Shown: positions 37,303 through 53,238, numbered from the stretch's first letter. The stretch: DNA of 64,000 bases from Candidatus Binatia bacterium (GCA_036493895.1 DASXOZ010000011.1:626-64625); one strand, 5' to 3'. Notes: generated by a model not told the origin, from the sequence alone. A program made the numbers and translations.

Positions 37303-37948
37303 TCGGATGCTCCGCAAAGCCCCGCAGCCATGCGGTCACTCCGCCAGCGAGATCCGCGACGCCGACCACGCGCGCGTCGCGCTGTTCGAGAATCGACGCG
37401 CTGCGGTCGCGCGCGTGAACGGTGACATCGTCGATGACGAAGTCGATGCCGGCAAGACTCTCCAGCGGCATGTCCCATCCGTCTACGTTTGCAATGGCCC
37501 CGCGGCGCGCGATCACCGCGAGCAGCCGCGGCGGCGCGAACAGCGCAAGCGTCGTCGAGAGCACGCCGCCTTGCCCGTCGCCGCCGAGCACGAACGGGCG
37601 CTCGAGCGCGAGGACGAAATTTTCGACCTCGCCGATCGCATCGGCGAAGCTCGCCGCTTCGGGCCGCTCGTGATCGTCGCCGAGGTACCACGAAAATCCG
37701 GCGTAGGAATCCGACGAGCGAAGGTTGCTCTGCATCGGGTTGCAGGGACGCGCGGCCTGCAGCGCGAAGATGTCCGGCTCGCTTCCAGCCAGGGTGCGCG
37801 CGTCGCCAAGTCCGCCGCCGGCGTCGCCGCCGCGCGCATGCAGCCAGACGACGACCGGAAGAAGGTCACCGGCGCTTCCCGCCGAGTGGGAGCGAAGGAG
37901 CGAGCAGTCCGGCGCAGGGCCGGAAGTCGGGCGCCCTGGCGGGTTCAG
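37295..37948 (-). CDS. Phospholipase/carboxylesterase-like alpha/beta hydrolase homolog lacking the catalytic Ser; probable CTG start
   Basis: VVWLHARGGD, GFSWY and FVLGGDGQGG (canonical GFSQGG). There is no ATG/GTG/TTG in frame after the upstream stop, but CTG at 37948-37946 overlaps that TGA with AAGGA upstream. Confidence 0.6.
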   Translation of the reverse strand: MNPPGRPTSGPAPDCSLLRSHSAGSAGDLLPVVVWLHARGGDAGGGLGDARTLAGSEPDIFALQAARPCNPMQSNLRSSDSYAGFSWYLGDDHERPEAASFADAIGEVENFVLALERPFVLGGDGQGGVLSTTLALFAPPRLLAVIARRGAIANVDGWDMPLESLAGIDFVIDDVTVHARDRSASILEQRDARVVGVADLAGGVTAWLRGFAEHPNG

Positions 37949-39741
37949 TCGATTTCCTTGACCGGCGCGGCCGCCGCGCCCTTTCCTGCGAGCATCGCGA
38001 ACGTGATCGCCGGTCCGAGGGTGCCGCCGCCGCCGTAGTAGTACTGGCCGGTCGGCGACGCGATGCAGTTGCCGGCACCGTACAGGCCCGCGATCGGCTC
38101 GCCGTCGGCGCCGAGCACCTGCGCGCTCGCGCTGGTCGCCGGACCGCCGTTGGTGTCGAGCGTCCCGGCCGCAAGGATGATCGCGTACAGGTGACCGGTC
38201 GGGTCGATCGGATGCATCGTCGGATTGAGCGTCTGGCCGATTGCCTGCGAGGTGCCCTGGTTCGGATACGACCAGACGTGCGAGAACCAGAGGCGGTCGT
38301 AGAGTTTCTCGCCGCGATGGAAGTCGACGTCGATGCCGTGGCCGGCAAACTCGTTGTAGCGCTTGAAGGTCGTCGACAGCGTTGCGGCGAACCCTTCGTC
38401 GAGCCGTACGCCGCCGGTCTTCGGCGCGAGCCTCAGCAGACGCTGGTCGATCGCGTCGGCCAGCTCCTGGGGGTTGGCACCGGTGATCACGTACGGTGCC
38501 TGGGTTCCGGCCGGCGGGATCGGGAAACGTCCGCCGAACAACTCGGCGCTGCGCTGGTCGTAAACCATCAGCATCAGCATGTTCGGCCATTCGTGCCGCG
38601 AAGGATCCCACGCAAAATGCACGCGCGTGCGCTCGTTGTAGTTCGAGCATTCGTTGACGACGCGGCGCCCGTAGCGGTTGACGAGGACCATCGAGTCGCC
38701 CGGCGGCATGAAGACGTCGTCGGGAGTGCTCGAGAACTGCAGCGCCTGCTCGAGCACGATCTCGGCGCGCCACGCCGAGCTCATGTTGCCGAGGCGCGCT
38801 CCTGCGGCGGTGGCCATGTAGACGAAGTCGCCTTCGTTGGTCGGCACCGCGCAGCCGCCGAAGATCGGTCCGGGCTGGAACGCCGTGGTCAGCTCGCGAT
38901 TCTGCGTGAAGCCGCCGCTTCCGAACACGACGCCTTTTTTGGCGCGAAGCCGCACGATCGTCTTGTCGATCTTTTCCGCCTCGATGCCGACGACCTCGCC
39001 GGCGTGGTTGCGAAGGATCGTCACGACACGGTGGCCCATCAGCGTCGCGATCTTGCGCGAGTCGATCGCGGCCCTGAGCTGGCGGACCATCTCGTCGCCG
39101 AGCCCGAACGAGCCGTCGGGTTTTTTCGCCCACAGGCGCCGGTCCACCGGCGTGATGTCGTCGACGGCTTCTTCGAAGTAATCGGGCATCGCGCCGAACG
39201 GCGGCATGTCGGCCGGCTGCGAGATCAGCGCTTTCATGTTCTCGAGCTCGTCGACGACGACGGGGCCGTTGTCGTAGAGGGCTTTGAGAAGGTCGTACTG
39301 GAGCTGGGAGAGGCCGAGCGTCTTGTCGTCGGCGCGAAAGAGCTGGGGATACGAAAAGCGCGCCATCTTCGCGATCGTCTTGTCGCGAGGCTCTTCGACG
39401 CCGCGCTCGCGCAGGAAGCGGTTGTTCGGGATCCAGTAGACTCCGCCGGACTTCGACGTCGTGCCGCCGAACAGCAGGGCCTTCTCGACGAGGGCCACCG
39501 ACGCACCGGCCTCGTGCGCGAACAGCGCCGCGACCGATCCCGCCGCGCCGCTGCCGACGACGACGACGTCCACTTCCTGGTCGAACTTGAGCTTGTCGGC
39601 GGCGCGGGCCTCGCGCACGCCCGGCAGCGTAGCGGCGCCGGCACCGGCGGCGGCCACGCCCGCGAGCCTCAGAAAGTCACGGCGAGAAATTCCCGGACGC
39701 GCCGGCGGCGCGCCCCCTGCTGCGGAGCTGTCGTCGTTCAC
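37945..39741 (-). CDS. Tat-exported FAD-dependent oxidoreductase, 3-ketosteroid-delta1-dehydrogenase (KstD)-like
   Basis: SRRDFLRLAG twin-arginine signal; DVVVVGSGAAG, GGTTSKSGGVYWIPNN, VNRYGRRVVNE, GTLDTNGG, GLYGAGN, GGTLGPAITF. Confidence 0.85.
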   Translation of the reverse strand: MNDDSSAAGGAPPARPGISRRDFLRLAGVAAAGAGAATLPGVREARAADKLKFDQEVDVVVVGSGAAGSVAALFAHEAGASVALVEKALLFGGTTSKSGGVYWIPNNRFLRERGVEEPRDKTIAKMARFSYPQLFRADDKTLGLSQLQYDLLKALYDNGPVVVDELENMKALISQPADMPPFGAMPDYFEEAVDDITPVDRRLWAKKPDGSFGLGDEMVRQLRAAIDSRKIATLMGHRVVTILRNHAGEVVGIEAEKIDKTIVRLRAKKGVVFGSGGFTQNRELTTAFQPGPIFGGCAVPTNEGDFVYMATAAGARLGNMSSAWRAEIVLEQALQFSSTPDDVFMPPGDSMVLVNRYGRRVVNECSNYNERTRVHFAWDPSRHEWPNMLMLMVYDQRSAELFGGRFPIPPAGTQAPYVITGANPQELADAIDQRLLRLAPKTGGVRLDEGFAATLSTTFKRYNEFAGHGIDVDFHRGEKLYDRLWFSHVWSYPNQGTSQAIGQTLNPTMHPIDPTGHLYAIILAAGTLDTNGGPATSASAQVLGADGEPIAGLYGAGNCIASPTGQYYYGGGGTLGPAITFAMLAGKGAAAAPVKEID

Positions 39742-39750
39742 GCGCCGATC

Positions 39751-40722
39751 TCAGGCTGCAGCGGCGGCGCCGGTCGGCGCCGAGTAGAACTGCCGCGTCC
39801 ACTGGCGGTACTCCCCGATCGGGCCGTCGGATTCGCAAAGGGCCGGCCGCGCCTGGAATCCCTTGTGTTCCCAGATCTGGAAGTCCTGCTGGATCGCCAG
39901 CGACTGGTCGTCCATGTACAGCTTGAGCAGCGCGCGCGTCTCGTCTTCGCTGCGGCCGTCCTTCTTGCCGATCACGCCGAAATGGATGCGCGTGATCTCG
40001 TCGTCGACCGGCGTGAGCCCTGCGACGATCACCGTCGTGAACATCCCGGAGTAGATCAGCCAGTCGAACCCGAGCCCCCAGTTCTGCGCCTGGATGTTGA
40101 AGTCGTCGCTGACGCCGCCCATCGTCTGCACGTCCTTGCGCGTCCAGATCGCCCACTTGAACATGTGCTGGTGGAATTCGTGGGAGCGATTCTTCGGCGC
40201 GTCCATCAGGTGCACGAAGTTGAAGTGGGGCCAGTCGATCGCGTTCTCCATGATGTCCTGGGGATGCGTGCGGACGTCCCAGGAGTATTTGTCGTAGCTG
40301 GAGGTCCAGTCGTCGGCGCCGAAGTACTCGATCGCCGGGATCTCGAAATCGGGCGCCGCGCCTTCGGCGTGGTACCAGACGAACACGAGCCCGCTGTGCT
40401 CGAGCACCGGGTAGGCGCCGGCGCGCGCCTTGGCGGGAATCTTGTCGGTGTACGGGATGTGGCGGCAGGTGCCGCCGGTATCGAACTGCCAGCTGTGGAA
40501 GGGACAGACGAGGCGGTTGCCTTCGACTTTTCCGCCATACCCGAAGTGGGCGCCGAGGTGAGGGCAGAACGGCTCGAAGGCCCCGGCTTTTCCGTCTTCG
40601 CCGCGGAACAGCACGATGTCGCGGCCGAGGTAGTGGACGGTCTTCACTTCGCCTTTGGCAAGCTCGTCCGAATAGCAGACCTGGTACCAGCTGTTGGGGA
40701 TGCCGAACGGAAATCGGGCCAT
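39751..40722 (-). CDS. Rieske non-heme iron oxygenase, KshA/sterol-oxygenase-like
   Basis: CPHLGAH...CPFHSW Rieske motif and ENAIDWPHFNFVH mononuclear iron motif; starts MARFPFGIPNSWY. Confidence 0.88.
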   Translation of the reverse strand: MARFPFGIPNSWYQVCYSDELAKGEVKTVHYLGRDIVLFRGEDGKAGAFEPFCPHLGAHFGYGGKVEGNRLVCPFHSWQFDTGGTCRHIPYTDKIPAKARAGAYPVLEHSGLVFVWYHAEGAAPDFEIPAIEYFGADDWTSSYDKYSWDVRTHPQDIMENAIDWPHFNFVHLMDAPKNRSHEFHQHMFKWAIWTRKDVQTMGGVSDDFNIQAQNWGLGFDWLIYSGMFTTVIVAGLTPVDDEITRIHFGVIGKKDGRSEDETRALLKLYMDDQSLAIQQDFQIWEHKGFQARPALCESDGPIGEYRQWTRQFYSAPTGAAAAA

Positions 40723-40748
40723 CGCGATGAACCTCCGGGGCAGATACG

Positions 40749-40763
40749 TGGGGTCAGGCACCA
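40749..40763. repeat. Single REP-like arm
   Basis: TGGGGTCAGGCACCA, identical to the core of the 24541 and 25975 elements, in the 5' leader of the Rieske gene. Confidence 0.7.
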
Positions 40764-40826
40764 GCGGCCACGTGCGCAATCACGCCTCGGTGGATAGCTG
40801 GCGTCGGACCCCGGATTTCGCCCATA

Positions 40827-40840
40827 TAGAACGTGTTCCA
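40827..40840. promoter_or_regulatory. KstR-like palindromic operator, site D (divergent promoter)
   Basis: TAGAACGTGTTCCA, a full match to TnnAACnnGTTnnA, between the Rieske gene and the SDR-crotonase-MFS operon. Confidence 0.72.
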
Positions 40841-40992
40841 GTGCCCGTGCAAGGGGCGGGCGGCGCGGCTACCATGCGGCGCGCAGCCGCCGACGGGGCG
40901 GGGGCAGGCCGGGGGACCGGCCGGCGGCGGATCTGGCAATGAAACCGGGACGAGCGGGACAAGCAGACCAAGAGGGACAAGGAGGAGAGGCG

Positions 40993-41778
40993 ATGACAGC
41001 GCGTCGGTGCCTGGAGGGAAAAGTCGCGGTGGTTACCGGTGCCGGGTCCGGCATCGGAAGGGCCACGGCCCTGCGCTTCGCGCGCGAAGGCGCCGCGGTC
41101 GTCGTCGGCGACCTGCAGGCAGCGAGCGCCGAAGCTGCGGCGGCGGAGATCGTCGCATCGGGGGGCCTTGCGGTGGCGCGCACCGTGGACGTCGCGGTCT
41201 CCGCCGAAGTCGATGCCCTGATCGACGATGCCGTCAGCCACTTCGGGCGCATCGACATCCTGATGAACAACGCGGCCGCCCCCCATGGTGCGCCGATCCT
41301 GGCAACTACCGATGCCGACTGGCGCCGCGTGATGTCGGTAACGCTCGACGGAGTCTTCTTCGGGCTTCGCGCGGCACTCGGGCGCATGACTGCCCAGCGC
41401 TCGGGCAGCATCCTCAACATTTCGTCGGGAGCGGGTCTCGGCGGCGAGGTGATGCTCGGTGCCTACGGCGCGGCCAAGGCCGCCGTGATCAACCTGACCA
41501 AGACCGCTGCCGTCGAGAACGCCGGTTACGGCGTGCGCATCAACTGCATCTGCCCCGGGCCGATCTCGACGCCGCCGCTGCATGCATGGCTCGGTGCGAT
41601 TCCGGGCGGGGTCGACGCGTTCTCGCGACAGATTCCCGCACGTCGCATCGGCGAGCCGGAGGAGATCGCTGCAGTCGCGACGTTCCTCGCCAGCGACGAA
41701 GCCTCTTACGTGACCGGCGCCGTCGTTGTCGTCGACGGCGGGGTGAATGCCCGGACGGGGACGCCGCGGTTCGACTAG
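40993..41778 (+). CDS. SDR family oxidoreductase
   Basis: LEGKVAVVTGAGSGIG, MNNAA, YGAAK, NCICPGPI. GGAGGAG SD before ATG 40993. Confidence 0.92.
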   Translation: MTARRCLEGKVAVVTGAGSGIGRATALRFAREGAAVVVGDLQAASAEAAAAEIVASGGLAVARTVDVAVSAEVDALIDDAVSHFGRIDILMNNAAAPHGAPILATTDADWRRVMSVTLDGVFFGLRAALGRMTAQRSGSILNISSGAGLGGEVMLGAYGAAKAAVINLTKTAAVENAGYGVRINCICPGPISTPPLHAWLGAIPGGVDAFSRQIPARRIGEPEEIAAVATFLASDEASYVTGAVVVVDGGVNARTGTPRFD

Positions 41779-41808
41779 AAGGCGGTACCTGCTGTAGAGA
41801 GCGGCGCG

Positions 41809-42603
41809 ATGGGATACGACGACATCCTCGTGGAGAACTCCGGCGGCATCGCGTGGGTCACGATCAATCGCGAAGCCAAGGGCAACGCATTCCGCGTGCA
41901 GACCGTGCGCGAGCTGATCGACGCGCTCGAGCAGGCCCGCCGGGACGCCGACGTGCGCAGCATCGTGCTGACGGGCGCGGGAACCCGCTTCTTCTGCATC
42001 GGCGGCGACCACGATCACGGCGGTGAGGCGGATCACGACGACCGCATCCACTACGGCAACGTCTTCCCCGTCACCGACCTCTACGACCTGATCGACAAGG
42101 TGCCGAAACCCATCGTCGCGATGGTCGCCGGTTTCGCCGTCGGAGGCGGCAACGTGCTCGCGCTGATGTGCGATCTGACGATCGCGTCCACTGCGGCGAC
42201 CTTCCGCCAGGTCGGGCCGATGATGGGCAGCTTCGATGCCGGCTTCGGCACCTGGTACCTCGAGGAAGCCGTCGGCCGCAAGAAGGCGAAAGAGATCTGG
42301 ATGCTCAATCGCAAGTACGCAGCGGCCGAGGCGCTCGCGATGGGGCTCATCAACGAAGTCGTCGAGCCCGAAAAGCTTCGCGCGCGAGTCGTCGAGATCT
42401 GCGAGGAGCTGGCCGATCGCGGGCCCCAGGCGCTGGCAGCGATCAAGGCCTCGTTCCACGCGCGCCACGGCGGTGTTGCCGGCCTTTCGCGCGTCGCGCT
42501 CGACCTGCTGACGCCGAACTACTACCGCAGCGACGAGAGCAGGGAGCTCGGCCGCGCCTTCGGCGCAAAGCAGAAGCCGGATCGAAAGAAGTTCTACCGA
42601 TGA
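41809..42603 (+). CDS. Crotonase-family enzyme of the MenB/BadI (ring C-C forming or cleaving) type
   Basis: FFCIGGD, GFAVGGGNVL, FRQVGPMMGSFDAGFG, VGRKKAKEIWML. Confidence 0.82.
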   Translation: MGYDDILVENSGGIAWVTINREAKGNAFRVQTVRELIDALEQARRDADVRSIVLTGAGTRFFCIGGDHDHGGEADHDDRIHYGNVFPVTDLYDLIDKVPKPIVAMVAGFAVGGGNVLALMCDLTIASTAATFRQVGPMMGSFDAGFGTWYLEEAVGRKKAKEIWMLNRKYAAAEALAMGLINEVVEPEKLRARVVEICEELADRGPQALAAIKASFHARHGGVAGLSRVALDLLTPNYYRSDESRELGRAFGAKQKPDRKKFYR

Positions 42604-43829
42604 CGCGCGCCGGCTGGCGCGGCGGGCCCGGCTTCGTGCTGCTGACGCTGACGCTGGTCAACACCGTCAACTGGGCCGACCGCCAGGTCGTCCCGATCCT
42701 GGTTCCCGCGATCAAGGCCGATCTTGCCCTCACCGATACCCAGCTCGGCCTCGTCGGCGGCCTGGCCTTTTCGCTGATCTACGCGCTGTCGGCGTTTCTC
42801 TTCGGATTTCTCGCCGACCGGAGCAGCCGCCGCCGCGTCATCCTGTTCGGGCTGGTGTGCTGGAGCGTGGCGACCGCTGCCGGCGCTTTCGCGCACGACT
42901 TCTGGTCCTTGTTCGCTGCGCGCTTCGTCACGGGAATCGGCGAGGCTTCGCTGTATCCCTGCGCGATGTCGCTGCTCACCGATGCGTTCCCCACCGAGCG
43001 TCAGGGGAATGCGATCGGAATGTTCGGTGCTTCCACGGCGGTCGGCAGCGGCCTCGGGATCGGGCTCGGCGGCCCGCTGGTCGCCCACCTCGGCTGGCGC
43101 AGCGTCTTTCTTCTTTACGGAGGCGCGGGCCTGCTCGTGCTTCCGCTGCTGCTGATGATGGAGGAGCCGGCGCGAAGCGGCAGCGAAGTCGCGCTGGCGC
43201 ACGATCCTCCCGTTTCGATCATCCGCGGCGCTCTCGGCGACGTCCGTCTGCTGGCCGTCTGGCTGACCGGAACCCTGCTGATTGCAGCGGCGACGGGATG
43301 GATCACGTGGGCGCCGACGTATTTCGTCCGCGATCTCCAGTTCGACGTCGGAAGCGTCGCGGGGATCTTCGGCATCGCGCAGCTTTTCGGCGGTGTGGCC
43401 GGCAGCATTGCCGGGGGCCGCCTCGGCGACCGTTATCGCAAGCGGCGCGTGGCCGGACAGCTGTCGGTCGCCGCGCTCGCGTCGCTGGCGGCCGTGCCGC
43501 TGTTCGGCGTCGCGCTTCTCGACGTTCCGCACCCGCTGCTGATGACGTGCGCCGTTCTCGGGCCTTTCGCGATCTTCGCGGCTTTTCCGAGCCTGCAAAG
43601 CCAGGTCGCCGAGATCGTCCCGGCGCGCCGCCGTGGGCTCGTCTTCGCAGTGCACGTGTTTTTTCTGAGCGGAATCGGCGCCGCGCTCGGGCCTTTCCTC
43701 GTAGGATTTCTCTCGGACCGCACCGGGAGCCTGCGCGCCGCGCTGCTTGCGCCGCTGCTCGGCGTGCTTCTTGCCTCGCTGAGCGCGATGTTCGCCGCGC
43801 GCGTCGTCAGGGCGCGTACACCGTCGTGA
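42600..43829 (+). CDS. MFS transporter (spinster-like)
   Basis: VNWADRQVVPIL, GFLADRSSRRR, ARFVTGIGEA; about 12 hydrophobic segments; ATGA overlap. Confidence 0.9.
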   Translation: MTRAGWRGGPGFVLLTLTLVNTVNWADRQVVPILVPAIKADLALTDTQLGLVGGLAFSLIYALSAFLFGFLADRSSRRRVILFGLVCWSVATAAGAFAHDFWSLFAARFVTGIGEASLYPCAMSLLTDAFPTERQGNAIGMFGASTAVGSGLGIGLGGPLVAHLGWRSVFLLYGGAGLLVLPLLLMMEEPARSGSEVALAHDPPVSIIRGALGDVRLLAVWLTGTLLIAAATGWITWAPTYFVRDLQFDVGSVAGIFGIAQLFGGVAGSIAGGRLGDRYRKRRVAGQLSVAALASLAAVPLFGVALLDVPHPLLMTCAVLGPFAIFAAFPSLQSQVAEIVPARRRGLVFAVHVFFLSGIGAALGPFLVGFLSDRTGSLRAALLAPLLGVLLASLSAMFAARVVRARTPS

Positions 43830-45418
43830 GCCTCGACCCGCTGCATCCGCCGAAGACCTCGGGTGCTGGCACGGCGCCGGTATCGTGGGCCGCGCAGGTC
43901 GCGGTTCCCCGCTACCTGACGCTGCGCGAAGGACACCGGCCCATCATCGTCGTCGCGCCGCACGGCGGGCGCAGGCTTCGCCCGATCCGGCGCGGTGACA
44001 GCGTCAACGATCTCTACACCGCCGAGATGGCCGCGCACCTGGCCGAGCGCCTGGGCGCGCACGCGATCATCAACGGCGGCCTCGATCGCAACGAGATCGA
44101 CCTCAACCGGATTTCCCATCTTGCCGCGAAGGCGCCCGAGGTGCTCGCGCTGCTTTTGACTGCGATCGATGCGGCGGGCGCCGGCGGCGAGGTCCCCTTG
44201 GTGCTGTTCGTGCACGGCTGGAACATGGTTCTTGCCTGCTGCGACGTCGGCGTCGGCCTTCGGCGTCGGGGCCCGCGGCTTTCCGGACGGCATCCGACGC
44301 TCTCGCGCGGCCGCTTCGAAGGAACGATCGCCGATCTCGAACACGAAATGGCTGCGCGCCAGCTGACGGCGTCGATCGGGCGGCGCTATGCGGCCAGTGG
44401 TCGCGACAACGCTGCCCAGCTCTTCAGCGGCCGTCATCACGACCATGAGGATGCGCTGGTTGCGCGCCTGGCGCGTCTTTCGCTCGGCGGCCGCGTCGAT
44501 GCGGCGCAGCTCGAGCTGGGCATTGCGCTGCGCTGGCCGGGTTGGAGGCGCGACGCCTGCATCGACGCGATAGTGGCTGCGCTCGAGCCGCGCGCCGGGT
44601 CGGGCCGCTTGCCGGTGGCTCCGGCGCGAAACTGGCTGGAGGCACCGATCGGCGAAGAAGAACCCGCGGCGCCGCTCGAGCGCGGGTTTTCGCTGCAGGC
44701 CGTGCTGCAGCGCGATGGCAGCGCAGCGCTGTTCTGCGGCGTCGAGGCGACGTCGGCCCATTCGATGGCGGCGCGCTTCTGCTTCGTGTTCGCCGACGGG
44801 ACGATGATGCTGCTCGTCGGCGAAGGGGACTGGGACGGGCGCGCGGGTCACTACTCGCTCGAAGGCGCGTCGTGGGTTTCGTCCCCGGACGCCGGTCGCA
44901 TCCGCATTTCGATTCGCGCTCCCTTCATCCGTTACCCGACGCACGACGCTTACCTCGACCTGGAAGCGGGACTGTCTCGTGCCGAGCTGGTCGACGCGCA
45001 GGTGGAGCTTTCGTACGAGGCGAGCGCGGAAAAGCACGGAAGGCTCCACGGGCATGTCGTCTTCGACGGGCGCCGCATGGACATCGGCGCCGTCGCATTC
45101 ACCGATCGCGGCGGACGTCGCGGCGGCGATGCCTCGCGGGTGCGCGTGTTCGCCGCGGCGGCAGACGAGACGATGATCGTGGCGGTCCGCGACGACACGC
45201 TCGAGATCTGCGACGCGGAAGACGGGACGGCCGTCATCCGCACGATCCCGGAGCTCGCGGCGCCGCTGCGGGAGGCCCGCATCATCGCGCGAGTGCCGGT
45301 CTGGCGTCCTCTCGGCGAAGGTCGTTTCGCGCGCTGGACCTTCGGCATCGCGCAGTGCCGCCTCGGTGCCGGCGACGAGTGGGTGGCCGGGCTCTTCGAT
45401 TCCCTCGAGATATTCTGA
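43826..45418 (+). CDS. Hypothetical protein with an N-formylglutamate amidohydrolase-like N-terminal domain and an unassigned C-terminal half
   Basis: IIVVAPHGG, RNEIDLNR and LFVHGW resemble FGase-type Zn-hydrolase motifs; GTGA overlap with the MFS stop. Confidence 0.55.
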   Translation: MSLDPLHPPKTSGAGTAPVSWAAQVAVPRYLTLREGHRPIIVVAPHGGRRLRPIRRGDSVNDLYTAEMAAHLAERLGAHAIINGGLDRNEIDLNRISHLAAKAPEVLALLLTAIDAAGAGGEVPLVLFVHGWNMVLACCDVGVGLRRRGPRLSGRHPTLSRGRFEGTIADLEHEMAARQLTASIGRRYAASGRDNAAQLFSGRHHDHEDALVARLARLSLGGRVDAAQLELGIALRWPGWRRDACIDAIVAALEPRAGSGRLPVAPARNWLEAPIGEEEPAAPLERGFSLQAVLQRDGSAALFCGVEATSAHSMAARFCFVFADGTMMLLVGEGDWDGRAGHYSLEGASWVSSPDAGRIRISIRAPFIRYPTHDAYLDLEAGLSRAELVDAQVELSYEASAEKHGRLHGHVVFDGRRMDIGAVAFTDRGGRRGGDASRVRVFAAAADETMIVAVRDDTLEICDAEDGTAVIRTIPELAAPLREARIIARVPVWRPLGEGRFARWTFGIAQCRLGAGDEWVAGLFDSLEIF

Positions 45419-45454: not shown

Positions 45455-47005
45455 TCAGTGCACCACCGCCCACGACCACGTTTCGGTGAGCGCTCCCTTG
45501 TCGTCGCGCAGGAACGCGCGCAGCTCGATCGGCGCGTCGGTCTTCGGCTTGATCTGGAACGCGAGGCGCCATCCGCCGGTGTCGGGATTGCGCAGCACGT
45601 GGTGGTCGAGAAGCTCGGCGACCTCGGGAGGCGGCGTCGTGATCACCGCCGTCGGCGGGGAGGCGTCGGGAATCGCGTTCAGGTCTTCGCCGGCAAAATC
45701 GATCACGAATCGTTTCGTGTCGCCCTTGGCTCCGCTGTCCTGGCGGGTCGCGATGATGCGGCCGCCCGGCGGAACGGCGGGATCGTCGGTGTAGAACGAA
45801 ACCGAATACGCGAAATCGAGCTGCTGGCCGGGCTGCACCGCGGTGTCGGGCACCCAGTACGCGACCATGTTGTCGACCAACTCGCTGTCGGACGGAATCT
45901 CGTCGAGCTCGACCCGCCCGTCCCCCCAGTCTCCGTGCGGCTGCACCCACGTGCTCGGTCTCTGTTCCGAGTGCGTCTCCAGGTCCTGGTAGTCGGCAAA
46001 GGCGCGGTCGCGCTGCAGCAGCCCGAAACCGCGCGGATTGTGCATCCGCGAGCTGCTCGCGTTGATGCGCATCGGGTTGTCCAGGGGCCTCCACAGCCAC
46101 TCGCCGTTGTCGAAGTGCAGCAGCAGGCCGTCCGAGTCGTGCACCTCGGGACGGAAGTCGTCGAAGTGGCGGCGCGAGTCCTCGCCGAAGAAGAACATGC
46201 TGGTGAGCGGCGCGATGCCGAGCTTGGCGACCGGCCGGCGCGGGAACAGGTGGGAAGTCACGTCGATGACGGTGCTGGCTCCGGGCGTGATCTCGAAGCG
46301 GTAGGAGCCGGCGATGCTCGGTCCTTCCATCAGTGCGAGGATCACGAGGCTTTTTGCGTCGGGAGCAGGTTTCTCGAGCCAGAACTCCGAGAAGTGCGGG
46401 AACTCCTCGCCGCCGGGCTCGACGGTGTTGATCGCGATGCCGCGTGCCGAAAGGCCGTAGACGTTGTCACGGCCGAGGGCGCGGAAATACGTGGCGCCGA
46501 GGAAGACGATGAGGTCGTCGAAGTAGGCCTGCGAGCGAAGCTGGCAGTGGACGCGAAATCCCGCATATCCGATGTCGGGCGGGATCTTCGCCGCGAAGTC
46601 GTTCTTGCCGTAATCGAACGAATGGATGTCGAAGGGAACGGGATGCACGCCGCCGTCGTCGATCACGTTGACCGCGACCGTCCGGTCGTAATAGAGGCCG
46701 GGATGAAACATCTGGACCTGGAACGGAAGGCCATCGGTTTTCCACAGCGCCTTGTCGGGATTGAAGCGGATGTCGCGCCACTGGTCGTACGTCATCGAGC
46801 CGACGAGCATCCACTTGGGCACCTCGTGACGGTGGTCGACGTACTCCTCTTTGGAGAGCGCCTGGGCCCTGGTCGTGACGTCGTCGAGGGAGAACGCGCG
46901 GGCCGCCGCGGGTGCCGCCAGGAGCGTCGCCGCAGCGAAAAACCAGGTCGCAGCCGCTCGGGAAGGGCAAAAGGCCCGCAGGAAGTGCAAGGTCGGTCGG
47001 GTCAT
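45455..47005 (-). CDS. opgG: Periplasmic glucan biosynthesis protein G/D family
   Basis: YDQWRDIRF, VFLGATYFRALG, YGLSARGIA, EEFPHF, RPEVHDSDGL, GFGLLQRDR, DNMVAYW, TETWSW; signal peptide. Confidence 0.92.
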   Translation of the reverse strand: MTRPTLHFLRAFCPSRAAATWFFAAATLLAAPAAARAFSLDDVTTRAQALSKEEYVDHRHEVPKWMLVGSMTYDQWRDIRFNPDKALWKTDGLPFQVQMFHPGLYYDRTVAVNVIDDGGVHPVPFDIHSFDYGKNDFAAKIPPDIGYAGFRVHCQLRSQAYFDDLIVFLGATYFRALGRDNVYGLSARGIAINTVEPGGEEFPHFSEFWLEKPAPDAKSLVILALMEGPSIAGSYRFEITPGASTVIDVTSHLFPRRPVAKLGIAPLTSMFFFGEDSRRHFDDFRPEVHDSDGLLLHFDNGEWLWRPLDNPMRINASSSRMHNPRGFGLLQRDRAFADYQDLETHSEQRPSTWVQPHGDWGDGRVELDEIPSDSELVDNMVAYWVPDTAVQPGQQLDFAYSVSFYTDDPAVPPGGRIIATRQDSGAKGDTKRFVIDFAGEDLNAIPDASPPTAVITTPPPEVAELLDHHVLRNPDTGGWRLAFQIKPKTDAPIELRAFLRDDKGALTETWSWAVVH

Positions 47006-47229: not shown

Positions 47230-48009
47230 ATGAAACTCCTTCGCGTGTTCGCGGTGCTGTTCGCGCTGCTGGCAGTGTCGAACTTCCTCAAGCCGATCCT
47301 CGAGAACGGCGAGACCGGATTCGTGTTCCTCGGCCGGCGCCTGGCCGGTCCACCGAACCTGATCGCGGCATGGACGTTCATGGCGTTCCTCGTCGCCTAC
47401 GCCGTGTCGCTGTGGCGGGAAAGGGCAGCCGCCCTTCCTCTCGGCATCGCGTACGCGTGCTATGTGACGGCCAACCTCTACCTGTTCACGATGAGGACTG
47501 CGCCGCCCACCGGAAACGCGAAAATCTTCGGCATCGTCTTCACCGTCCTCGCGCTGGCCGGATCCTGGGGCGTGGTCGCGCTGATGATCCGCGACGGCTT
47601 CGCATCGCGCGACAGCGCTCCCGGTCGCATCCTGCTGCGCGCTTTTGCGCTGCTGTTCGCGTTGATGGCGCTGTCGGATGCGATCAAGCCGTTCGCGTAC
47701 ACGGCGGACGTCGGGTTCGTGCTGTTCGGCCAGAGGCAGACCGGCATGGCCAATACCGTGGCTGCCCTCGTGTTCGCGTCGCTCCTTGCCACCTACGCGG
47801 CGAGCATCTGGCAGGAAAAGCGCCTCGCGCTCACGCTCGGCGCTGCGTACGCGGCCTACGTGATCGCGAATCTCGTGCTGTGGAATTTCCGAAAGCCGCC
47901 GGGAACCGAGCTGCCGCTTTCGTTCATCGTCCCCTATCTGTTCAGCGCCGTGGGGGTGTCCAACGGCGCAGCGCTGCTGCTGTGGCGCCACCGCGAGCGC
48001 CTGACCTGA
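47230..48009 (+). CDS. Integral membrane protein made of two internal repeats
   Basis: Halves align: FAVLFALLAVSNFLKP..GFVFLGRR vs FALLFALMALSDAIKP..GFVLFGQR; YAVSLW vs YAASIW; AYACYVTANL vs AYAAYVIANL. Confidence 0.8.
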   Translation: MKLLRVFAVLFALLAVSNFLKPILENGETGFVFLGRRLAGPPNLIAAWTFMAFLVAYAVSLWRERAAALPLGIAYACYVTANLYLFTMRTAPPTGNAKIFGIVFTVLALAGSWGVVALMIRDGFASRDSAPGRILLRAFALLFALMALSDAIKPFAYTADVGFVLFGQRQTGMANTVAALVFASLLATYAASIWQEKRLALTLGAAYAAYVIANLVLWNFRKPPGTELPLSFIVPYLFSAVGVSNGAALLLWRHRERLT

Positions 48010-48085
48010 ATCGAAATGCGGGACAGCCCCGCAGGACGCCGTGATGGCGGGACCGTAACGTGTACCTGTTGCGGACTGCGCGCGT

Positions 48086-49672
48086 TCAGGCTTTCGCCCG
48101 CTTCGGCGCGTCGTCCTCCTCGATCTCCCGCACGCTGATGCGGCCGGCAGCGTTGGTGCACACGCCGTCGCCGAGCGAGAAACGCCAGTGGTGGCCCGGG
48201 CAGACGATCTGCCCGCCTTCGACTTCGGCCTCCGAAAGATCCGAGCCTCCGTGCGGGCACCAGCGCTGCACTTCGTAGCGGCGCCCTTCGTGCTCGAGCA
48301 CGAACGTGTCGTGCGCGCGGTCGGCGGTCTCGACTTTCTGGATCGCGGCAAGGGCCCTGGAGTCGGACATTTTGAACAGCGTGAACAGGTGCTGGTTGTA
48401 GCGGTCGGGATCGCGGTGCGCCTTGAAGCGAAGCGACAGGAACGCGTCCTCCCAGCCGAGCTCCTCGCGCATCACCTGGTCGATCAGCGTCGAGGTCATT
48501 TCGAACTCGTACTGGCAAGGCTCGCCGTCCCAGGCGTAGACCAGCTCCGCTTTCGGCTCGGGGCGGAAGTCGACGACCCAGTCGCCGCCGTGCGCCCCGG
48601 TCACGCGAAACAGCACGCGGATGCCGATGTGCTCGACGAAATACGGATGACCCTTGAGAAACGGCAGGAAATGCCGGCGAAAGCGCTCGAACAGGCCCGG
48701 CGAAGCCGGCGTGATCGCGGCGAGCACGTCGGCGACGACGCGCTCTTTTTCGGCGCGGTGGCGCGCGTAGTACGCGCCGCGGTCGCGTTCGTAGTCGAAT
48801 CCTTCGTACGCGGGGTCGCGTTCCAGACGGAACTCGCCGGCGGTGCCGCGCGCGCCGATATTCAGCCGGTCGCCGGGATTCATCACCATGCCCGGGATCG
48901 TCGACTCGCCCGCAAGGCGCCCGGCCGCCACCGGCGGCGTCGGGAACATGCTGGCTTCGCCGAAGAAAAACGGAGCCAGCTCCGGATCGAAGAAGCAGGG
49001 CGGTCCCGCGAACGGAATCGCCAGTCGCGGCTGCAGGGCCTTTGCCGCGGTTACGAACGACGCGATCGCCGATTCGCGGCGCTGGGCGGCGAGAAGTCGC
49101 TTGGTCGCTTCGTCGTACGTCGTGTAGACGAGCGGATACCAGATGGCCGGCGTGGCCTGCGCGAACAGCACGTCGATTCCCTCGGCGCGGATGTCGGCCA
49201 CCGGCAGCGCGAGGTTGCAGTCGTTCAGGTTGAAGATCTTGTGGCCGTCCACCTCGATCAGTGCGCAGGAGTCGAACCAGTGCGGAGGGCAGTGGAAAGT
49301 CGGCGTCGAGATCTTGACGGTGAACCCCGGCGCGACCTCGAATGGCTCGAAGTTGTCCAGCTCGACGATGGTACGAAAGCCGAGACGCCGCAGGCGCGAG
49401 ACGAGGCGCTTCTTGTGCGCGCGTCCCGTCAGCACCGGCACGCTGCGATCGATGCGCCCGAGGAACTCGGGGTCGTAGTGGTCGGGATGCTCGTGGGAAA
49501 TGTAGAGCACGTCCGGCGACGACAGCGCTTCCAGATTGCCCTCGTACTGCGGGTACTGGAACCAGCTCGCGTTGTAGGATCCCTTGCGCGACATCCACGG
49601 GTCGCAGACCAGCAGCTTGCCGCCGTGGCGAAGAGCCAGGCCGCTGTGTCCGATGAATTCGATGCTCGTCAT
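48086..49672 (-). CDS. namH: MBL-fold plus C-terminal Rieske hydroxylase, NamH (Rv3818)/CMAH-like
   Basis: GHSG, CDPW, ASWF, LYISHEHPDHYDP, FNLND, AIWYPLVY, AGPPCFFDPEL, FLSLRFKAHR, QRWCPH...CPGHHW. The motif order matches my recollection of mycobacterial NamH; the symbol denotes homology, not proven function. Confidence 0.75.
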   Translation of the reverse strand: MTSIEFIGHSGLALRHGGKLLVCDPWMSRKGSYNASWFQYPQYEGNLEALSSPDVLYISHEHPDHYDPEFLGRIDRSVPVLTGRAHKKRLVSRLRRLGFRTIVELDNFEPFEVAPGFTVKISTPTFHCPPHWFDSCALIEVDGHKIFNLNDCNLALPVADIRAEGIDVLFAQATPAIWYPLVYTTYDEATKRLLAAQRRESAIASFVTAAKALQPRLAIPFAGPPCFFDPELAPFFFGEASMFPTPPVAAGRLAGESTIPGMVMNPGDRLNIGARGTAGEFRLERDPAYEGFDYERDRGAYYARHRAEKERVVADVLAAITPASPGLFERFRRHFLPFLKGHPYFVEHIGIRVLFRVTGAHGGDWVVDFRPEPKAELVYAWDGEPCQYEFEMTSTLIDQVMREELGWEDAFLSLRFKAHRDPDRYNQHLFTLFKMSDSRALAAIQKVETADRAHDTFVLEHEGRRYEVQRWCPHGGSDLSEAEVEGGQIVCPGHHWRFSLGDGVCTNAAGRISVREIEEDDAPKRAKA

Positions 49673-49861
49673 CCGGATCGTTTCCCCCGAAGCGCCGTCC
49701 CCGCGACGCCGCACCAGTACCTTTAATTGCTACGGCGAGCGGACGAAAATCGGCACCGGCGCGCATTCGGCGCAGTGCCGCGGCGCGTAACCCGGCATCC
49801 ATCTTCGATTTGGGCGATTTGTGGCTTTTTTCGGCGCAGCGCGGCGCGTACATATGCGCGC

Positions 49862-51481
49862 GTGCCGTCCCGGAGCGCCTCTGCGGACAGCCCCGCCTCC
49901 CGCCGCATCCTCGCCGCGGGTGCCTGCGCACTGGCGATCGCCGCCGCAGTCGCCTGGACGGCGGCGTGGCACCTGCGCTTCACGTCGCTGTGGTACCCCG
50001 ACGCCTGCGATTACGCGCAGCTCGGGCGCCGCATCCTGCGTGACGGCAGCATGACGACGGGCCAGTCCTTTCCGTATGTGCTGGCGTGGCTGCGCGCCCA
50101 CGCGCTGGCCACGACGGCACCCTGGCCCAACGTCACCCGCTTCGTTCTTCCTGCGCTCGTTCGCGCTGCGTCCTTCTCGGTGTTCGGCGTCAGCGATTTT
50201 GCCGCGGTGCTGCCCGACGCGCTGTTCCACTGCGCGACCGTCGCGTTGTGCTTCGTGCTCGGCGCCCGCCTGGCCGGTCTTGCGGCGGGGTGGTCGGCGG
50301 CGGTCCTCGTCGCCTTCAGCCCGACGATGCTCGGCTACGCACTGAGCGGCCTCAGCGAAACCGGCGCGGGATTGCTCGTGCTCGCCGCCGCAGCGGCCGT
50401 CGCTTGCGTCGTTCCCGATGATCGCGCAGCGAAGGGCGCTGCGAGGAATGCCGCCGTTGCGGGGGCGTTGATCGGCCTCTGCTTCCTGCAGCGCTCGAAT
50501 CTCGTTCTGCTCATCATCCCCGCCGTCGCGCTGATCCTCGGCGCACGCGGGCTCGGGGAGCTTCGCGCCCGAGCGCGCATCGCGGCCGTCTTGTGTGCGG
50601 CCTGCGTGGCCGTCGCCTCGCCGTGGCTGCTTCGCAACGCATGGAGTTTCGGAACGCCGACGCTTTCGCTGACGATGGATCGCAACGTCGGGTGGGCGCT
50701 GCTCGGCAAAGACGTTTTCTACGAGTTTACACTGATCGATGCGGGACAGGTGATTCGTTCCCACGCAGCGGACGTCGTCGCGCGCCTGGATCCGCGGCCT
50801 CTGGCCGGCCACTGGAGCGATTTTTTCGGCCCCGATTTCGGGCCGTTGCTCCCGGCGTTCGTCGTCGCGTCGGTTGCAGTATCGCTGCCGCCGCGCGCGC
50901 GCGTGCTGCGAACGCTGACGTGGGCGACACTGCTGCTGAGCTTCGTCGCGTTCGCCCCGCTCGTCGTGGGTAATTTCCTGGATCGTTACTACGAGCCGTT
51001 CGCGCCGCTGGTCGTCCTCCTGGTCGTCGTGCAGCTTGCGATCCTTGCGCGCCGCTTCGGGCGCGCCGGCCCGGCCGTTCTCGCGGTGGCATGCAGCCTT
51101 GCCCCGCTGTGGTGGATCAGCCACGGGTTCGCGTCGACCGTCGCGCGGCGCGACCCCGCTCTCGGCCAATGGGATCGCTGGGTTTCCGAGGCGGTGGCTC
51201 CCGATGCCGTCGTTGCATCCGACCAGTCCTGGTACGTCGCGTGGCAGGCCGACCGGCCGTCGGTGCGTTTCTATGGAGACGGCGCCCAGCTCGCCGAGCT
51301 CGAGCGCGGCTACACCCCGATTTCCGCCGTTTGGCTGACCGCGGCCGACAGCCGCCGATTCGAGCTCAGCATCGACGCTGCCGGCGGCGCCGCTCGCTGG
51401 CGGCTGGTTCGCCGCAGCGACGACGGCGGCTCGCTGTGGCTCGCGGCGCCTGCGACCCCGGTGACCCCGGCATCGCCCTGA
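49862..51481 (+). CDS. GT-C (ArnT/PMT-like) membrane glycosyltransferase
   Basis: N-terminal TM then YPDACDYAQLGRRI, many TM segments, SETGA, PWLLRN, RYYEPF and a C-terminal periplasmic domain. GTG start tentative. Confidence 0.75.
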   Translation: MPSRSASADSPASRRILAAGACALAIAAAVAWTAAWHLRFTSLWYPDACDYAQLGRRILRDGSMTTGQSFPYVLAWLRAHALATTAPWPNVTRFVLPALVRAASFSVFGVSDFAAVLPDALFHCATVALCFVLGARLAGLAAGWSAAVLVAFSPTMLGYALSGLSETGAGLLVLAAAAAVACVVPDDRAAKGAARNAAVAGALIGLCFLQRSNLVLLIIPAVALILGARGLGELRARARIAAVLCAACVAVASPWLLRNAWSFGTPTLSLTMDRNVGWALLGKDVFYEFTLIDAGQVIRSHAADVVARLDPRPLAGHWSDFFGPDFGPLLPAFVVASVAVSLPPRARVLRTLTWATLLLSFVAFAPLVVGNFLDRYYEPFAPLVVLLVVVQLAILARRFGRAGPAVLAVACSLAPLWWISHGFASTVARRDPALGQWDRWVSEAVAPDAVVASDQSWYVAWQADRPSVRFYGDGAQLAELERGYTPISAVWLTAADSRRFELSIDAAGGAARWRLVRRSDDGGSLWLAAPATPVTPASP

Positions 51482-51612
51482 ACGCCTGCAAGGCCGCGAT
51501 TTTTTGGAACCGAGCCGGCGTGCTACGAAGGCGGTCCCCGATGCGGCAGCACGCGCGCGTCGCTTTCTCGGGCGGGACGCGCGCGAGTCCCTTTGTCAGG
51601 CGGGAGCAGGAA

Positions 51613-53238
51613 TTGAGCTGGAACATCGCAGACATCCTCGTCGCGATCGCCCCCGTTCTGGGTGACGAAAGCGCGCTCATTCATGCTGGGAGCGGCAGCG
51701 GCCGTCCGCCGCGTGTCGTTTCGTGGAAAGACTTCGACCGCAGGACCAACGCACTGGCGCGGCTTCTGATCGAGCGCGGCGCCAGGCCGAACGACAAGGT
51801 CGCGATCTATTCATACAACCGGCCCGAGTGGCTGGAGTCGGTGGCCGCGTGCCTCAAGGCCCGGCTGGTTCCCGTCAACGTCAATTACCGTTACCGCGAC
51901 GAAGAGCTCCATTACCTGCTCGAGAACAGCGATGCGGTGGCGCTGCTGTTCGAGGGCACGTTCAGCGAAAACGCGGCGCGGCTCGCGCAGGCACTGCCGC
52001 TGCTTCACACGCTGGTACGCATCGACGACGGCGGGCCGCGCTGCAGCGGCGCGCTCGACTACGAGACCGTGGTCTCGGGACCTTCCGCGCCGCTGGAGCT
52101 CGAGCGCAGCGGCGACGACCTGATCCTGCTGTACACCGGTGGCACGACCGGCATGCCGAAGGGCGTGATGTGGAGGCAGGAGGATGTCTTCCGCACGCTC
52201 GGAGGCGGCGGCGATCCTCTCGGCACCAGCCCGAGGCCGGCCAACCTTGCCGAGCACGTCGCCAACGTCGCGGCCGGAATGCAAAGGCAGCGCCTTCTTC
52301 CGGCTTGCCCGCTGATGCACGGCACGGGACTGTTCACTGCGATCAACGCGCTGCTGAACGGCGGCAGCGTCGTCACCACCGACTCGCGCCGCCTCGATGC
52401 GCACGCGCTGTGGTCGGCAGTCGAGCAGCACCGCGTCGAGGCGATTTCCATCGTCGGCGACGTGTTCGCGCGCCCGATGCTGCAGGCATTGAACGAGCAC
52501 CGATACGACCTGGACAGCCTGCGCCTGATCGTGTCGTCGGGCGTCATGTGGTCGCTGGAAAACAAGAAGGCCCTGCTCGAGCACCATCCGTCGATGCTCC
52601 TGTTCGACTCGCTCGGCTCCTCGGAAGCCACCGGCCTTGGCGCCTCGGTGATGGGAATGGGGATCGAGATGCAGACGGCGTCGTTCAAGGTGGGCGACCG
52701 GGTGCGCGTCGTCACCGACGACGGGCGCGACGTGGTGCCGGGAAGCGGCGAGAGGGGGATGGTTGCACGCAGCGGCCCGATCCCCGTCGGCTACTACAAG
52801 GACGAAGAGAAGACCGCGAAGACGTTTCGCACCATCGGCGGCGTGCGCTACTCGATCCCCGGAGATTTCGCGACGGTGGAGGTCGACGGCACGTTGAGGC
52901 TTCTCGGCCGCGGCTCGGCGTGCATCAACACGGGCGGTGAGAAGGTTTTTCCCGAGGAAGTCGAGGAAGTGCTCAAGCGGCACCCTGCCGTCGAGGACGC
53001 CGCAACCATTGGTCTGCCCGACCCGCAGTGGGGCCAGGCGATTCATTCCCTCGTCGTTCTCCGGGGCGGGCAGCAGTGCGCCGAGGCGTTGCTTCGCGAG
53101 CACGTGCGGGAACACCTTGCCGCGTACAAGATTCCCAAGCGCATTTTCATCGTCGACACGCTCGGCCGGTCTCCGTCGGGAAAGATGGACTACAAGGGCG
53201 TGACCGCGCGCGCGACCGAGCTCGCCGCGCGGACCTGA
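51613..53238 (+). CDS. Acyl-CoA synthetase (FadD19-like)
   Basis: WNIADI, LYTGGTTGMPKGVMW, PACPLMHGTG, DSLGSSE, YSIPGD, INTGGEKVFPEEVE, SGKMDY. TTG start with GGAG/AGGA upstream. Confidence 0.9.
   Translation: MSWNIADILVAIAPVLGDESALIHAGSGSGRPPRVVSWKDFDRRTNALARLLIERGARPNDKVAIYSYNRPEWLESVAACLKARLVPVNVNYRYRDEELHYLLENSDAVALLFEGTFSENAARLAQALPLLHTLVRIDDGGPRCSGALDYETVVSGPSAPLELERSGDDLILLYTGGTTGMPKGVMWRQEDVFRTLGGGGDPLGTSPRPANLAEHVANVAAGMQRQRLLPACPLMHGTGLFTAINALLNGGSVVTTDSRRLDAHALWSAVEQHRVEAISIVGDVFARPMLQALNEHRYDLDSLRLIVSSGVMWSLENKKALLEHHPSMLLFDSLGSSEATGLGASVMGMGIEMQTASFKVGDRVRVVTDDGRDVVPGSGERGMVARSGPIPVGYYKDEEKTAKTFRTIGGVRYSIPGDFATVEVDGTLRLLGRGSACINTGGEKVFPEEVEEVLKRHPAVEDAATIGLPDPQWGQAIHSLVVLRGGQQCAEALLREHVREHLAAYKIPKRIFIVDTLGRSPSGKMDYKGVTARATELAART

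Follow-up and report, generated by a model that had tools for sequence, protein, structure and literature searches.

The window, by which we mean the whole 64,000-nt stretch of DNA from Candidatus Binatia bacterium (GCA_036493895.1 DASXOZ010000011.1:626-64625), carries two divergent genes in the interval studied here (48086-51481): one for an oxygenase of the family of NamH, the mycobacterial UDP-N-acetylmuramic acid (UDP-MurNAc) hydroxylase, and one for a membrane glycosyltransferase of the GT-C type. As far as the sequence methods used here can tell, the oxygenase belongs to the NamH family and lies outside the NamH orthologous group. Its gene occupies 48086..49672 on the minus strand and encodes 528 aa, an assignment based on the open reading frame (ORF), Pfam, the match to NamH and an AlphaFold2 (AF2) model. 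A longer ORF of 542 aa (48086..49714, minus strand) begins at a GTG at 49714, and the ATG at 49672, which corresponds to M15 of this ORF, is most likely the true start because all relatives begin at M15. The 528-aa product is identical to the database protein P0001, and a Shine-Dalgarno-like GGGGGA is found upstream of the ATG. The GT-C gene (49862..51481, plus strand, 539 aa) was assigned from its PMT_2 domain, an AF2 model and a fold match to ArnT; its ORF extends upstream to a TTG at 49727, and the database call, identical to P0121, starts at the GTG at 49862. The divergent intergenic region between the two genes, read from the sequence, spans 189 bp (49673..49861), and a promoter scan of this region found no sigma-70-type consensus.

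Three Pfam domains, all scoring above the curated cut-offs, were assigned to the hydroxylase. The N-terminal metallo-β-lactamase (MBL)-fold domain of the UlaG/CmlA-like kind, with a putative O2-activating metal site (49157..49663, minus strand; Lactamase_B_3, residues 18-186, E 1.6e-8), is followed by an Rv3818-type SCP2-like middle domain (48356..48691, minus strand; PF25451, residues 342-453, E 1.1e-11, 45.5 bits against a cut-off of 28.2) and by a C-terminal Rieske [2Fe-2S] domain (48149..48313, minus strand; PF00355, residues 468-522 of 542, E 2.2e-8), which matches Rieske ferredoxins and KshA in the PDB. This arrangement is the order of NamH, described as an N-terminal UlaG domain with a C-terminal Rieske domain (PMC10050696), and the reverse of the order of CMAH, the deuterostome enzyme that combines a Rieske center with an MBL-like domain and has its Rieske domain at the N-terminus (CDS positions 43-345; PMC5767959); CMAH was compared here by its published description.

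As the reference for NamH (Rv3818, or namH of M. smegmatis) we used an orthologue from Mycobacterium sp. 236(2023) (L013:2797-4350), which is not the characterized protein itself. It was recovered by searching genome contigs with a 25-mer taken from the sgRNA2 target in M. smegmatis namH (PMC10050696 supplement); three Mycobacterium/Mycolicibacterium genomes contained the 25-mer, all of them within a gene of ~517 aa, and M. smegmatis itself was not retrieved. On the full SCP2_Rv3818 model the orthologue reaches 160.8 bits, and it has the same MBL/UlaG-like, SCP2-like and Rieske pattern as the window protein. BLASTP aligned residues 17-524 of the window protein with residues 2-508 of the orthologue at 29% identity (E 5e-42), collinearly across all three domains, which bears out the original prediction of an MBL N-terminus and a C-terminal Rieske domain collinear with NamH over the full length. 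Reciprocity, which had been proposed as a check, was also observed, as tblastn of the orthologue against the window matched this gene alone besides a short Rieske match in a KshA-like gene.

The HxHxDH motif of the MBL domain (H60-E-H62-P-D64-H65 in the 528-aa numbering; 49478..49495, minus strand) is invariant in the family alignments, together with D134, N150, D151 and Q172 (alignments of 62 and 133 sequences). The Rieske ligands C472, H474, C491 and H494, encoded at 48191-48259, form a CPH...CxxH pattern that is invariant family-wide, and the HxHxDH motif, the Asp and the Rieske ligands are the same in NamH. Among the 133 family members, 40 positions are common to the window protein's own clade (clade A), the clade with mycobacterial NamH and the rest of the family, and the window protein keeps all of them. 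Among the 57 positions conserved in the NamH clade and in the remaining members alike, 50 are retained by clade A, which also has invariant substitutions of its own (Y43, P175, R198, F228 and F236); F416, A418, N426 and Q469 are common to clade A and the NamH clade more than to the rest of the family. With a core common to all clades, this clade-specific comparison gave no means of telling substrates apart.

The AF2 single-chain model of the hydroxylase is confident, with a mean predicted local distance difference test score (pLDDT) of 92.3 and a predicted template-modeling score of 0.90, and the fold search found no solved structure that spans the whole chain. For the MBL domain, Foldseek matched MBL hydrolases as well as the diiron hydroxylases CmlA and FrsH, and a profile of the domain searched against the PDB gave CmlA at 9.2e-14 and FrsH at 1.1e-11, with the best hydrolase at 4e-8. 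The HxHxDH motif aligns with theirs, and CmlA D403 aligns with D151, in an alignment restricted to CmlA residues 255-477 (~210 residues). Unlike the window protein, CmlA and FrsH have neither a Rieske nor an SCP2-like domain, carry an N-terminal domain for which the window protein has no corresponding extension, and act on amino acids tethered to nonribosomal peptide synthetases (NRPS); the window regions scanned gave no NRPS genes. A pseudogene or chance ORF was ruled out by a third-position GC content (GC3) of 0.86, the presence of all family-invariant residues and the confident fold. Judged from these sequence features, the gene is intact and its product probably an active NamH-type oxygenase.

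Searched exhaustively with phmmer, 1.84 billion representatives at 50% identity yielded 167 proteins at E<=1e-30, in which the entire clade A collapses into one representative. Clade A, compared over 17 distinct loci, is restricted to Binatia-like metagenome-assembled genomes (MAGs). In a neighbor-joining tree (133 sequences, 503 columns, 200 bootstraps), clade A was monophyletic in 200/200 bootstraps, and the clade with mycobacterial NamH comprised 13 sequences, 37-52% identical to the mycobacterial protein, with support of 192/200. Of the three refuting results named beforehand, the first, a placement outside the NamH clade, was obtained here: the window protein sits in a robust clade of its own kind, which appeared as the exclusive sister of the NamH clade in 0/200 bootstraps. 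The window protein is 25-30% identical to members of the NamH clade and up to 38% identical to other lineages, and on a hidden Markov model (HMM) of the NamH clade it reached 289 bits against at least 691 for the members, ranking 53 of 133, with higher scores in 35 of the 111 other family members. Since the deep nodes of the family were recovered in 3-18 of 200 bootstraps (<10%) and do not resolve the branching order, we make no claim on the sister group of clade A. P0156 (Pilimelia, Micromonosporaceae) was considered as a bridge to an N-glycolyl taxon and rejected; it has no close relatives in other genomes and its position was supported by 18/200 bootstraps.

The host differs from those of NamH as well, being a diderm of the Binatia, for which no N-glycolyl peptidoglycan is known. 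The proteins of the window, whose GC content is ~67%, include OpgG, Omp85/TamA and a TamB-sized ORF (ORF calls and Pfam), and therefore the host is a diderm, as the original prediction had it. The nearest loci in GTDB genomes are in Candidatus Binatia MAGs, some of which are labeled Myxococcales or Deltaproteobacteria. A NamH-like gene in a diderm is less unusual than had been supposed, as homologues exist in cyanobacteria and Bacteroidia, and many family members are labeled 'UDP-MurNAc hydroxylase' by the Joint Genome Institute (JGI), a label that is an automatic transfer. In the literature searched we found no N-glycolylmuramic acid (MurNGlyc) in cyanobacteria, no report of a 'UDP-MurNAc hydroxylase' outside Actinobacteria and no characterized family member outside Actinobacteria and animals.

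The product of the neighboring gene is soundly supported, by its predicted structure, as a real ArnT-fold GT-C. It scores 34.8 bits on PMT_2 (cut-off 26.1), its AF2 model has a pLDDT of 84.6, and Foldseek placed ArnT (5f15) first, with a whole-chain match at TM 0.60/0.60, ahead of oligosaccharyltransferases (STT3/AglB/PglB), DPY19 and Aft enzymes including AftD. With this and the 189-bp gap, the head-to-head arrangement with an ArnT/PMT-like gene that had been described earlier is upheld. A phmmer search against PDB sequences gave no match, so that the fold search alone was informative. D47, in a YPDACDY motif past the first transmembrane helix (TM1), is invariant in seven homologues, in keeping with the acidic residue conserved in the first extracytoplasmic loop of multi-pass GT-C enzymes. 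The protein resembles ArnT in its PMT_2 family, the acidic motif after TM1 and a C-terminal soluble domain, and differs from it in sequence (13-14% identity), in having no arn genes nearby (none in the window regions scanned) and in its rarity, with three orthologues in all. ArnT proper was rejected, since the equivalog model NF009784 gave 15.5 bits against a cut-off of 567. GT-C enzymes take polyprenyl-phosphate-linked sugars, not nucleotide sugars, as donors, and this one would do the same; the window regions scanned contain neither an ArnC/GtrB-type GT2 (polyprenyl-phosphate sugar synthase) nor any other sugar gene.

The pairing of the two genes is rare. The GT-C is present at the locus in 2 of the 17 clade-A loci, namely the window and L014; 14 of the other 15 have no GT-C, and in L020 the upstream DNA is too short to judge. 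L014 has the same head-to-head pair with a gap of 200 bp, and its genes are 49% (GT-C) and 79% (hydroxylase) identical to those of the window; the two loci also have the whole block of TamB, TamA and an AMP-binding acyl-CoA synthetase (ACS) in common. Among 5.8 billion proteins we found three GT-C orthologues, at 100%, 49% and 42% identity, with no close relatives in GTDB representative genomes and, in the metagenome collection, none beyond the contig of L014. Linkage could be read in the two orthologues that have DNA, both of them head-to-head with a NamH-like gene; the third, P0123, has a divergent upstream gene. In relatives 77-80% identical (L001-L004 and L006), the direct divergent neighbor of the NamH-like gene is the ACS gene (51613..53238, plus strand, in the window; assigned by Pfam, with the start set by aligning the L006 orthologue), with no GT-C between them. 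The intergenic DNA on the ACS side in L006 is conserved downstream of the GT-C of the window (~51474-51534, 3' of the GT-C stop, matches L006:7859-7921), which suggests that the GT-C was inserted into, or elsewhere deleted from, an old intergenic region between the NamH-like and ACS genes.

The GT-C is thus most likely a sporadic accessory neighbor, to go by these comparisons, and because it is present in 2/17 loci the hydroxylase is independent of it. The co-occurrence that had been proposed as a check did not materialize, with orthologues nearly absent from the databases, and the proposal that the GT-C transfers the sugar made by the hydroxylase lost its footing in a link that is not conserved and in the lack of a GT2 in the regions scanned. 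Functional coupling in the window organism and L014 is possible but unproven, since both readable GT-C orthologues adjoin a NamH-like gene.

The neighborhoods of the other family members show two patterns. Within clade A, the constant neighbor is a SRAP gene. In the 70-80% subclade, to which the window belongs, it comes directly after the NamH-like gene at a distance of 17-60 bp; the window itself has neither this gene nor the methyltransferase-transporter unit found in six loci of the 55-58% subclade (L009, L020, L021, L024, L025 and L026). In these six, the methyltransferase and transporter genes lie between the NamH-like gene and the SRAP gene, in the order NamH-like gene, Methyltransf_33 (EgtD-like), ABC ATPase and OpuAC-permease fusion (EgtUV-like; example L009:8001-13865); L025 gave no SRAP match, unlike the other five. 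Since the unit is tight and set apart from the NamH-like gene by 180-410 bp, and the upstream 4HBT and MatE genes are syntenic too, the adjacency may reflect inherited gene order rather than a functional link. One of these loci, L026 (contig CAXQPB010000159.1), is filed under a Nitrosopumilus sp. MAG and has Binatia-type neighbors, probably a binning error.

Outside clade A and the actinobacterial NamH clade, four of the five relatives sampled lie in surface-polysaccharide clusters: those of Nostoc (L027:7001-8536), a Bacteroidia MAG (L028:7001-8539) and two metagenome contigs (L029:7001-8539 and L030:7001-8545), which at 35-39% identity are the nearest to the window protein outside clade A. 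These clusters combine epimerases and exporters (Wzz/Wzc or ABC2) with Bac_transf and GT4 enzymes. A gene for a DegT/DnrJ/EryC1 aminotransferase lies one or two genes downstream of the homologue in three of them. Furthermore, Pfam shows that P0202, P0204 and P0218 have an N-terminal GNAT acetyltransferase fused to the MBL-Rieske hydroxylase, a Rosetta-stone hint that the family may act on N-acetyl groups. A CMAH-like domain order in P0202, P0204 and similar proteins was ruled out, since the additional domain is GNAT and the Rieske domain is still C-terminal.

By analogy with its characterized relatives, the window protein is most likely an O2-dependent hydroxylase of the N-acyl group on an activated amino sugar. 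Its C-terminal Rieske [2Fe-2S] center would take electrons from a separate protein, either a ferredoxin or an NAD(P)H-dependent reductase, and pass them to a His/carboxylate iron site in the MBL domain, which would activate O2 for C-H hydroxylation. The target would be the methyl or methylene of the N-acetyl (N-acyl) group, giving an N-glycolyl-type sugar in parallel to NamH on UDP-MurNAc and CMAH on CMP-Neu5Ac; candidate substrates are UDP-MurNAc or a sugar destined for lipopolysaccharide, extracellular polysaccharide or glycoprotein. NamH and CMAH, the sole characterized members, hydroxylate N-acetyl groups (PMC2722178, PMC6194230, PMC5767959), in the case of CMAH by N-acetyl to N-glycolyl chemistry on a nucleotide sugar (PMC5767959). 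We propose that the family acts on N-acyl amino sugars because of these reactions, the polysaccharide clusters with DegT genes and the GNAT fusions; the latter two also lend indirect support, at the level of the family, to the earlier suggestion of another N-glycolyl sugar for a surface glycan. On balance, then, we consider it somewhat probable that the protein, a member of a Binatia-specific clade, is an active oxygenase of the NamH family and that an N-acyl amino sugar is what it hydroxylates.

Several observations weigh against this assignment. The reaction class is extrapolated across ~28% identity from the actinobacterial NamH clade, because the biochemistry is confined to that clade. Clade-A genes were never seen in sugar or peptidoglycan clusters, their neighbors being SRAP and, in one subclade, the EgtD-like methyltransferase and OpuA-type transporter, and with deep nodes below 10% clade A is not tied to the polysaccharide-associated lineages either. 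Even in Actinobacteria, the presence of a homologue does not always track MurNGlyc, as Catenulispora and Rubrobacter are exceptions with no reported MurNGlyc (PMC6194230).

Among the alternatives, a true UDP-MurNAc hydroxylase equal in function to NamH, by which Binatia would make MurNGlyc peptidoglycan, seems to us rather unlikely. It would agree with the NamH architecture, the full-length homology and the retention of all catalytic-core residues, and the gene stands alone like mycobacterial namH, with no pathway-specific partners, which fits a housekeeping substrate; F416, A418, N426 and Q469 point the same way, as does the JGI label of several clade members. However, that label is an automatic transfer, the literature searched gave no report outside Actinobacteria, the protein is placed outside the NamH clade both by the tree (0/200 as sisters, 25-30% identity) and by the HMM (289 bits against at least 691, and 35/111 others higher), and its closest relatives outside clade A are in polysaccharide, not peptidoglycan, clusters. 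Alternatively, the hydroxylase and the GT-C could form a two-gene module in which an N-glycolyl sugar passes to a polyprenyl phosphate and from there to an envelope target such as lipid A, a periplasmic glucan or a protein. The recurrence of the pair in L014 with a gap of ~190-200 bp, in a genome where the GT-C has diverged to 49% identity and the hydroxylase is at 79%, the occurrence of both GT-C orthologues with retrievable DNA beside a NamH-like gene, and the intact GT-C fold with its invariant Asp would be accounted for by such a module. We nevertheless regard it as distinctly improbable: 14 of the 15 other clade-A loci have no GT-C (L020 being not judgeable), three orthologues are known among 5.8 billion proteins with none in GTDB representatives, the window regions scanned gave neither a GT2 synthase nor any further sugar gene, and the GT-C is co-oriented with ACS, TamA and TamB, not with the hydroxylase. 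The two loci also have the whole TamB-TamA-ACS block in common, so that the pairing may simply be inherited.

A shift of clade A to a non-sugar substrate (a betaine, an amino-acid derivative, a lipid or an acyl thioester), with the same Rieske-to-MBL iron chemistry directed at a different C-H bond, appears very doubtful to us. The EgtD-like Methyltransf_33 and the OpuA/EgtUV-like ABC transporter that follow in six divergent clade-A loci would suit such a substrate, but they form an operon 180-410 bp away, and the syntenic 4HBT and MatE genes suggest inherited order. The subclade of the window is divergent from an acyl-CoA synthetase, a neighborhood that is confined to this one subclade, and the SCP2-like domain, another feature in favor, is present in NamH itself. 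As CmlA and FrsH demonstrate, non-sugar substrates are within reach of the MBL diiron scaffold; lipid/steroid-type catabolic genes abound in the window, and clade A has its invariant substitutions Y43, P175, R198, F228 and F236, all of which are compatible with this possibility. The hydroxylation of an N-acyl amino sugar remains the assignment that we prefer. A broader scenario, in which some Binatia N-glycolylate an envelope sugar, either muramic acid or an amino sugar delivered to an outer-envelope target by the GT-C, which is fast-evolving, in the window organism and L014, is in our view doubtful.

N-glycolylated muramic acid is regarded as a hallmark of actinomycetes, and if the Binatia enzyme acted on muramic acid it would provide the first N-glycolyl peptidoglycan in a diderm. 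In mycobacteria this modification has been suggested to affect lysozyme and β-lactam resistance (PMC6194230), and it raises recognition by NOD2 (PMC2722178). If the broader scenario, which we hold doubtful, is true, the relatives in polysaccharide clusters and those with GNAT fusions would make N-glycolyl (hydroxyacyl) amino sugars a widespread, overlooked modification of Gram-negative surface glycans. The function of the many uncharacterized diderm clades of the NamH family would tell whether N-glycolyl envelope sugars are commoner than assumed. The gene alone makes a modest case, as its enzyme family is known, its clade is uncharacterized, the phylum is uncultured and the pathway context is uninformative; the better lead is the family-level pattern of diderm polysaccharide clusters and GNAT fusions.

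Downstream of the hydroxylase gene, 53 nt past its stop, a pattern scan alone, which is weak evidence, gave a terminator-like hairpin (48017..48033, minus strand), and such sites in the region numbered 5 against 3.1 expected. The hairpin is common to the hydroxylase gene and a convergent gene (47230-48009, plus strand), which encodes a multi-pass membrane protein of 259 aa that matches no Pfam family and consists of two tandem halves (49% identity over 92 residues, E 5e-27). Further along, an OpgG/MdoG periplasmic glucan biosynthesis gene (45455-47005, minus strand; E 1.5e-186) has no adjacent OpgH, and the ORF upstream of it (43799-45418, plus strand) has no Pfam match. Two long plus-strand ORFs at 6880-11790 and 14711-19144 encode 1636 and 1477 aa, respectively, with a GC3 of 0.82, as expected of genes, and no credible Pfam family. 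Meanwhile, the region 37945-42603 resembles a steroid/lipid-catabolism cluster and contains genes for a KstD-like FAD_binding_2 protein, a KshA-like Rieske oxygenase (Rieske and KshA_C), a short-chain dehydrogenase and an enoyl-CoA hydratase.

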